Assembly (NCBI RefSeq): GCF_003790525.1
Contig: NZ_CP033635.1
Origin: Escherichia coli
GTDB taxonomy: Bacteria; Pseudomonadota; Gammaproteobacteria; Enterobacterales; Enterobacteriaceae
DNA length: 64,000 nt
Direction: 5' to 3' (one strand)
The notes beneath the pieces are model-generated. The model saw only the letters and a list, made by a program, of their open reading frames with translations, had not been told where the DNA came from and did no database searches. Shown piece after piece: positions 47,465 to 47,762 of this stretch; positions within the stretch are counted from its first letter, which is position 1; each line of letters begins with the position of its first letter. Made by a program: the position numbers and the translations under genes.

Positions 47465-47541
47465 TGGTTGCGGGGGCCGGATTTGAACCGACGACCTTCG
47501 GGTTATGAGCCCGACGAGCTACCAGGCTGCTCCACCCCGCG
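47465..47541 (-). tRNA. metV: Initiator tRNA-fMet (CAU anticodon)
   Basis: 77-nt minus-strand match to E. coli initiator tRNA (CGCGGGGTGGAGCAGCCTGGTAGCTCGTCGGGCTCATAACCCGAAGGTCGTCGGTTCAAATCCGGCCCCCGCAACCA), CCA encoded. Confidence 0.9.
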
Positions 47542-47575
47542 TCACCGTACTGCTTTTACTTCATCAAATTTTGAT

Positions 47576-47652
47576 TGGTTGCGGGGGCCGGATTTGAACC
47601 GACGACCTTCGGGTTATGAGCCCGACGAGCTACCAGGCTGCTCCACCCCGCG
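47576..47652 (-). tRNA. metW: Initiator tRNA-fMet
   Basis: Second identical 77-nt copy, 111 bp from the first. Confidence 0.9.
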
Positions 47653-47685
47653 TCACCGTACTGCTTTACTTCATCAAATTTTAAT

Positions 47686-47762
47686 TGGTTGCGGGGGCCG
47701 GATTTGAACCGACGACCTTCGGGTTATGAGCCCGACGAGCTACCAGGCTGCTCCACCCCGCG
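47686..47762 (-). tRNA. metZ: Initiator tRNA-fMet
   Basis: Third identical 77-nt copy, 110 bp from the second. Confidence 0.9.

Follow-up and report, generated by a model that had tools for sequence, protein, structure and literature searches.

The DNA analysed here, a 64,000-nt stretch of the Escherichia coli chromosome (the window), almost certainly carries the metZWV operon, in which the major initiator tRNA, tRNA1-fMet, is encoded in its G46 form by three identical genes in tandem. No observation made here contradicts this identification. The array is long known and ordinary, and nearly every E. coli carries it between mltA and amiC. As far as they can be read from sequence, all defining features of a bacterial initiator tRNA and of the metZWV operon are present. 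The mildly new material is limited to a population census of the array and to rare tRNA copies with a C65→U change.

ARAGORN called exactly three tRNA genes in the whole 64-kb window, each a tRNA-Met(CAU) on the minus strand, and Rfam matched each of them to RF00005 at 61.4 bits, compared to a gathering score of 29. In the order of transcription, the genes are metZ (47686–47762), which is promoter-proximal, metW (47576–47652) and metV (47465–47541), whose 3' end is also the boundary of a low-GC islet. metZ, a 77-nt gene with the CCA end encoded, was additionally assigned by its identity to K-12. All three copies, each 77 nt long, share 100% identity. Their starts lie 111 bp and 110 bp apart, and in Tandem Repeats Finder the array has a period of 110, a copy number of 2.7 and 98% matches. 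In the window, a 25-nt stretch of the tRNA is found three times, compared to 0.00 expected from shuffled sequences. The spacer between metZ and metW (47653–47685, minus strand) is 33 nt long (tcaccgtactgctttacttcatcaaattttaat), is denoted type s2, and is identical to that in K-12. The spacer between metW and metV (47542–47575, minus strand) is 34 nt long (tcaccgtactgcttttacttcatcaaattttgat), is denoted type s3, and has one T more than the corresponding K-12 spacer (s1). The s3 and s2 spacers are one T indel and one G/A substitution apart. An earlier sequence-only reading had described three identical 77-nt genes repeated in tandem on a 110–111-bp period, with near-identical spacers that differ by a single-base deletion and one substitution, and ARAGORN, Rfam and the sequence comparison all agree with that description.

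ARAGORN labels the genes as “tRNA-Met (cat)” only, a label that does not separate the three classes of CAU tRNA, and the genes might thus encode an elongator tRNA-Met, or a tRNA-Ile2 in which the CAU is modified to lysidine. The cat anticodon is at position 35 in all three copies. Several features of the sequence and its predicted fold speak against the elongator and tRNA-Ile2 assignments. C1 and A72 are mismatched and unpaired, leaving an acceptor helix of 6 bp, and the anticodon stem is closed by GGG:CCC (29–31:39–41) beside the loop CUCAUAA. In the fold, the D stem is formed by GAGC/GCUC, in which A11 pairs with U24, a feature of initiator tRNAs. Position 46 is a G, the variable loop is AAGGUCGUC, and the gene as a whole has the outline CGCGGGG...CUCAUAA...CCCCGCAACCA. 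The three G–C pairs of the anticodon stem are described as an initiator feature in PMC3017606. Moreover, the genes are 100% identical to those of K-12 metZWV, whose product is experimentally established as tRNA1-fMet: metZ, metW and metV form one operon of three identical tRNA1-fMet genes (m7G46), while tRNA2-fMet, with A46 in K-12, is the product of the unlinked metY (PMC3017606). Formylation by Fmt and direct binding to the ribosomal P site are established for the identical K-12 tRNA (PMC3017606, PMC7949028). Since the initiator hallmarks are present, the elongator and tRNA-Ile2 assignments are excluded, and we give them virtually no chance of being correct; the initiator identity put forward in the sequence-only reading is upheld by sequence, fold and literature alike.

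Two mechanically called open reading frames overlap the array on the plus strand. One, of 92 aa (47429–47707), runs antisense across metV, metW and part of metZ, and contains an internal peptide repeat that mirrors the repeat in the DNA. The other is a 94-codon in-frame upstream extension of mltA (47689–47970), starting at a TTG (47689) that lies inside metZ. The mltA gene itself (murein transglycosylase A; 47971–49068, plus strand) is divergent from the tRNA operon and starts with the ATG at 47971, which is also the start of the RefSeq protein WP_000678646.1. Neither open reading frame is annotated in the identical RefSeq segment, and both run antisense through tRNA genes, in agreement with their previous description as repeat artifacts. 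The first is not a gene and the second is not coding, and annotators should avoid calling either the antisense 92-aa frame or the long mltA start.

The probable metZWV promoter and a short leader can be placed at 47763–47803 (minus strand), as read from the sequence, the comparison with K-12 and conservation. A −35-like element, TTGCAT (47803–47798), is followed by a 16-nt spacer and a −10 element, TATAGT (47781–47776), and the GC-rich discriminator and leader, GCGCATCCACGGA (47775–47763), directly abuts the mature 5' end of metZ. The promoter element matches the K-12 sequence within the knockout and flanking primers of PMC3017606, and Citrobacter, Salmonella and Atlantibacter have conserved both the −10 element and the discriminator (GCGCATCC). 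A single base in this region differs from K-12 MG1655: at position 47785, in the promoter spacer and 4 nt upstream of the −10 element, the window has T on the plus strand (A on the tRNA strand), whereas K-12 has C (G). Two promoter-down mutations map to the −10 region of metZWV (PMC3017606), one of which, D4, is given in that paper as “G to A just upstream of the Pribnow box”. The substitution in the window is probably benign, because an A on the tRNA strand at 47785 is common in B2 strains and in Citrobacter.

Downstream of metV, at a distance of 17 nt, there is an intrinsic-terminator-like hairpin followed by U7 (47410–47447, minus strand). Its inverted repeat (47417–47430 and 47434–47447) has 14-bp arms that are 93% complementary, and the RNA is predicted to fold at −16 kcal/mol (z = −3.3) ahead of the UUUUUUU run. 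The terminator is an islet-type sequence, unlike the terminator found in K-12 and the outgroups. A scan of 47300–48050 for promoter and terminator consensus sequences called no site; it missed both elements because the −35 element fits the consensus at 3/6 positions and the hairpin loop lies outside the rules of the scan. According to the general scheme for tRNA operons, metZ, metW and metV would be co-transcribed from the single promoter upstream of metZ, the primary transcript would be cleaved within the spacers of 33/34 nt, which are AU-rich, and the tRNAs would be matured by RNase P together with 3' exonucleases. The transcript would end at the hairpin and U7 at 47410–47447, donated by the end of the 5.57-kb islet instead of the ancestral terminator. 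Previous work describes a single promoter upstream of metZ from which the three genes are co-transcribed, and which is down-regulated by ppGpp (PMC3017606, PMC11480407).

The islet occupies 41900–47464 (plus strand; 5565 bp), from the stop codon of amiC (40646–41899, plus strand), a conserved core gene on its far side, to the 3' end of metV. It contains five co-oriented genes, identified by annotation, Pfam and NCBIfam, encoding a LicT/BglG-type antiterminator (start at 42157), a MalX-like PTS IIBC protein, a PatB-family C-S lyase, a short KpsF/GutQ-like SIS protein and a D-2-hydroxyacid (PGDH-like) dehydrogenase. Just upstream of the LicT/BglG-type gene, at 42085–42142, a hairpin with 15-nt arms is followed by a T run, in the position where the RAT/terminator leader of such a PTS operon would be expected, making it a candidate for this element. 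The GC content of the islet is 0.34–0.44, compared to ≈0.51–0.55 in the flanks, and the islet was found in 1686 of the 5426 complete E. coli genomes (31%), at 91–100% identity.

K-12 has the same array in a different setting. Its three 77-nt tRNA genes, its metZ–metW spacer and its amiC and mltA neighbours are the same as in the window, but its metW–metV spacer (s1) is one T shorter than s3, and downstream of metV, a 73-bp amiC–metV spacer with two terminators of its own stands in place of the islet and its different terminator. The K-12-type terminator (AACACCCUAACGGGUGUUUUUUU) is also present in E. albertii, Citrobacter and Salmonella arizonae, while the trailer seen in the window was found only alongside the islet or a type VI secretion system (T6SS) island. 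Among the 65 Enterobacterales loci in which both amiC and the array were visible, the gap between them measured 63–256 bp in 60, and was filled by inserts of 2.1–5.6 kb in the other five. The distribution of the terminator and the close gaps in 60/65 loci indicate that the compact amiC–array state is ancestral. The islet is thus an insertion or replacement, and the probable terminator of the operon now comes from it. The 2.1–5.6-kb inserts between amiC and the array were seen in Intestinirhabdus, Enterobacillus, Raoultella and Kosakonia. In Atlantibacter hermannii, homologues of two of the islet genes are found at the same site, with 67–69% amino-acid identity.

The sequence-only reading had placed a foreign islet on the 3' side of the array. 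The position is accurate, as the islet begins at the first base after metV; its GC content is low and its presence among strains is variable (1686/5426). We considered the possibility that site-specific recombination into the metV 3' end brought in the islet as a classical tRNA-targeted integrative island, the array being its attachment site. Besides the junction immediately after the tRNA, the low GC content and the presence in only 31% of genomes, a precedent at the same point speaks for this possibility. A T6SS island downstream of metV is known in ExPEC/B2 strains (ETSS2; PMC3032704). In B2 strains such as E. coli Nissle 1917, this 27-kb island lies between the PTS islet, which is on the amiC side, and metV. 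A direct repeat of 41 bp, perfect in both copies, bounds it on either side and consists of 27 nt of the metV trailer and the last 14 nt of metV (204–244 and 27329–27369 in our extract L136 of the Nissle 1917 locus). No integrase is annotated inside the Nissle 1917 island. The islet and the T6SS island occupy the same site, at the metV 3' end, but the latter is 27 kb in size, encodes a T6SS, is bounded by the 41-bp repeat and is absent from the window.

The islet itself, however, differs from such an element in several respects. By annotation, Pfam and NCBIfam, there is no integrase gene among its five genes. Probes made from the 3' end of the tRNA (25 nt and 14 nt) matched only the three genes themselves within the window, and a search of 41600–47800 for flanking direct repeats found none. 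Its other boundary falls exactly at the amiC stop codon, and the ancestral 73-bp spacer was replaced rather than inserted into. The 91–100% identity across lineages suggests long residence and exchange through flanking homology, and the homologues at the same site in Atlantibacter hermannii likewise speak against a classical island. Site-specific entry at metV is therefore distinctly unlikely. The islet is better described as an insertion or replacement next to the tRNA array than as an integrase-borne tRNA island, and the earlier claim holds for its position.

The copy number of the array was determined in 5426 complete E. coli genomes, using E-value cut-offs that only full-length matches could pass. 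A tRNA–spacer–tRNA query, reporting two or more copies, matched 5193 genomes at 10285 chromosomal places; a 3-copy array query (three or more copies) matched 4999 genomes at 5092 places; and a synthetic 4-copy array query (four or more copies) matched 67 genomes at 93 places, with 26 of these 67 genomes having five copies. The junction of metZ with its promoter was present in 5422/5426 genomes. Three copies was the commonest state by far, found in 4932 genomes (90.9%), followed by one copy in 229 (4.2%), two in 194 (3.6%), four in 41 (0.8%) and five in 26 (0.5%; four or five together, 1.2%), while four genomes (<0.1%) had none. These classes reproduce the place totals exactly (194 + 2 × 4932 + 3 × 41 + 4 × 26 = 10285, and 4932 + 82 + 78 = 5092). 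With metY included, the median total of initiator tRNA genes per E. coli genome is four.

In the variant arrays that were compared in sequence, whole tRNA-plus-spacer units had been gained or lost and the flanks were intact. Written in the direction from metV to metZ, with t for tRNA and s1, s2 and s3 for the spacer types, the array of K-12 is t-s1-t-s2-t and that of the window is t-s3-t-s2-t. Strain 23CRST017 has t-s2-t, WP4-W18-ESBL-09 has t-s3-t-s3-t-s2-t, 675SK2 has t*-s3-t-s2-t-s3-t-s2-t, HS has t-s1-t*-s1-t*-s2-t and XL10-Gold has t-s2-t-s2-t-s2-t. A rare variant, in which C65 is changed to U and the G49–C65 pair becomes G49·U65, makes up the two middle copies of the 4-copy HS array (811–887 and 921–997 in extract L007) and the terminal copy of the 5-copy 675SK2 array (590–666 in L008), and is also found at metY in B19374 (701–777 in L014). 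Exact matches to the C65U variant occurred in only 7 of 20,395 records.

The same copy number recurred in independent assemblies of one lineage. HS had four copies in three assemblies (and three copies in a fourth stock), two copies were found in two O104:H4 genomes and in three O145:H28 genomes, and the 5-copy state, which marks a group of clinical isolates, came from at least eight projects. Further examples, as assembled, are AVS0536, 20AR0192 and LF82 with one copy, 2009EL-2071 and RM13514 with two, and MRSN346595 with five. Copy-number variants were present in all three flank contexts, namely the empty site, the PTS islet and the T6SS island. The previous claim that the array is prone to copy-number change by homologous recombination is therefore borne out for the change itself, with one to five copies and whole units gained or lost, while homologous recombination is the presumed mechanism. 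Judging from these end-products, unequal recombination or replication slippage would add or remove whole units, as is possible with a 110–111-bp repeat unit that includes 77 bp of perfect identity. In BL21(RP), the array is reduced to ≈53 nt, corresponding to the 5' part of one tRNA gene (2948–3055 in extract L005). This remnant adjoins an ISAs1 transposase and yafV, and is fused to a sequence that we take to be an IS1 terminus, indicating an IS-associated rearrangement in this laboratory strain.

Tandem 110-bp repeats are prone to mis-assembly, and some of the census is likely to be affected. About 27 of 60 sampled single-copy genomes came from one wastewater/river project (AVS0xxx, CP1243xx–CP1245xx) and had diverse chromosome sizes. 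This enrichment suggests that the assembly pipeline of that project systematically collapsed the 110-bp repeat, and because the single-copy class is enriched for one project with varied chromosome sizes, part of that class is probably due to assembly collapse. No single step leads from the K-12 array to the 4-copy array of XL10-Gold, in which all spacers are s2. A DH5α genome (NZ_CP076470.1) has two copies, unlike the 3-copy array of its K-12 parent. These deviations of XL10-Gold and DH5α from K-12 represent either change on a laboratory timescale or assembly error. Given the project enrichment and the XL10-Gold array, the 9% share of genomes with other than three copies is an upper bound.

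The same concern could be raised about the window, whose three copies would then be a product of collapse or expansion in the assembly, the source strain having some other number. The proneness of such repeats to mis-assembly and the heavy over-representation of one project among the single-copy genomes lend this some weight. However, three copies is the state of 90.9% of the 5426 complete genomes, the two spacers in the window differ, so that the units can be told apart, and an identical segment is present in the finished genome of E. coli SMS-3-5. We consider it highly improbable that the count is an artefact, and take the array in the window to have three copies.

The identity with SMS-3-5 (NC_010498.1) is 100% over 39000–56300 of the window and 98.4–99.9% elsewhere, while at least a dozen other genomes match 5000–18000 with 100% identity. 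Two segments are missing from SMS-3-5: 6342–7763, containing an IS4 element (open reading frame 6404–7750), and 15167–17021, containing a DUF4139-family gene (open reading frame 15205–16875, minus strand). The window is mosaic relative to SMS-3-5. It therefore stems from an E. coli chromosome that has this locus in common with SMS-3-5 but need not be SMS-3-5, an assignment considered at first and rejected. The tRNA-Gly gene that RefSeq places upstream in SMS-3-5 has no counterpart in the window. The window also contains the GcvB sRNA gene (52087–52292, minus strand; 199 bits) and the OmrA/OmrB sRNA pair (11449–11530 and 11646–11733, plus strand; 86 and 97 bits).

Beyond E. coli, the gene order argA–amiC–[array]–mltA–tcdA, with two to four tRNA copies, was found in 85 Enterobacterales species loci, in which the MltA matches served as locus markers only. 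In this sample, which was chosen for having at least one tandem pair, two copies were found at 26 loci, three at 56 and four at one. The other initiator gene of E. coli, metY, located upstream of rimP–nusA–infB, belongs to the same family and differs by one nucleotide in K-12 (PMC3017606), with A46 in place of the G46 of the array; it is a single gene at another locus, outside the window. A single initiator tRNA gene (99.6% identity over ≈80 nt) was also seen on two genuine plasmids, NZ_MG591698.1 (353 kb, E. coli) and NZ_CP109732.1 (91 kb, Enterobacter roggenkampii). Full arrays in records labelled as plasmids were discarded, since these multi-megabase records are mislabelled chromosomes, and a search of a phage collection returned nothing relevant.

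E. coli has other tandem tRNA gene arrays, such as tyrTV, whose duplicate copies were reportedly found by Russell et al. (J Mol Biol, 1970) to be lost by unequal recombination. The two systems share identical tRNA genes arranged head to tail with short spacers, and changes in copy number by whole units. They differ in amino-acid specificity, and the instability of metZWV is deduced from genome comparison rather than measured genetically.

The metZWV operon is the source of most of the cellular initiator tRNA, and the level of tRNA-fMet tracks the number of gene copies; when metZWV is deleted, cells grow more slowly, become sensitive to cold and initiate less faithfully, with non-initiator tRNAs starting translation (PMC3017606, PMC11480407). 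It is conceivable, though in our judgement unlikely, that the natural polymorphism of one to five copies is a heritable and selected dial for initiator-tRNA dosage, rather than neutral noise or assembly error, and that initiators of distinct function are encoded by the C65U copies of HS and 675SK2. The 2-copy O104:H4 and O145:H28 lineages, the 5-copy clinical group and the 4-copy HS may be candidates for such a dial. If the idea were true, lineages would fix a lower or higher supply of initiator tRNA, with effects on growth rate, cold tolerance and initiation fidelity.

For genome analysis, the array is a spot at which assemblies can collapse or expand. The census, with ≈91% of genomes at three copies and real, lineage-fixed variants with two, four and five copies, is a modest descriptive addition to what was known of this operon. 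Accessory DNA has repeatedly landed immediately 3' of metV, in E. coli as well as in other Enterobacterales.
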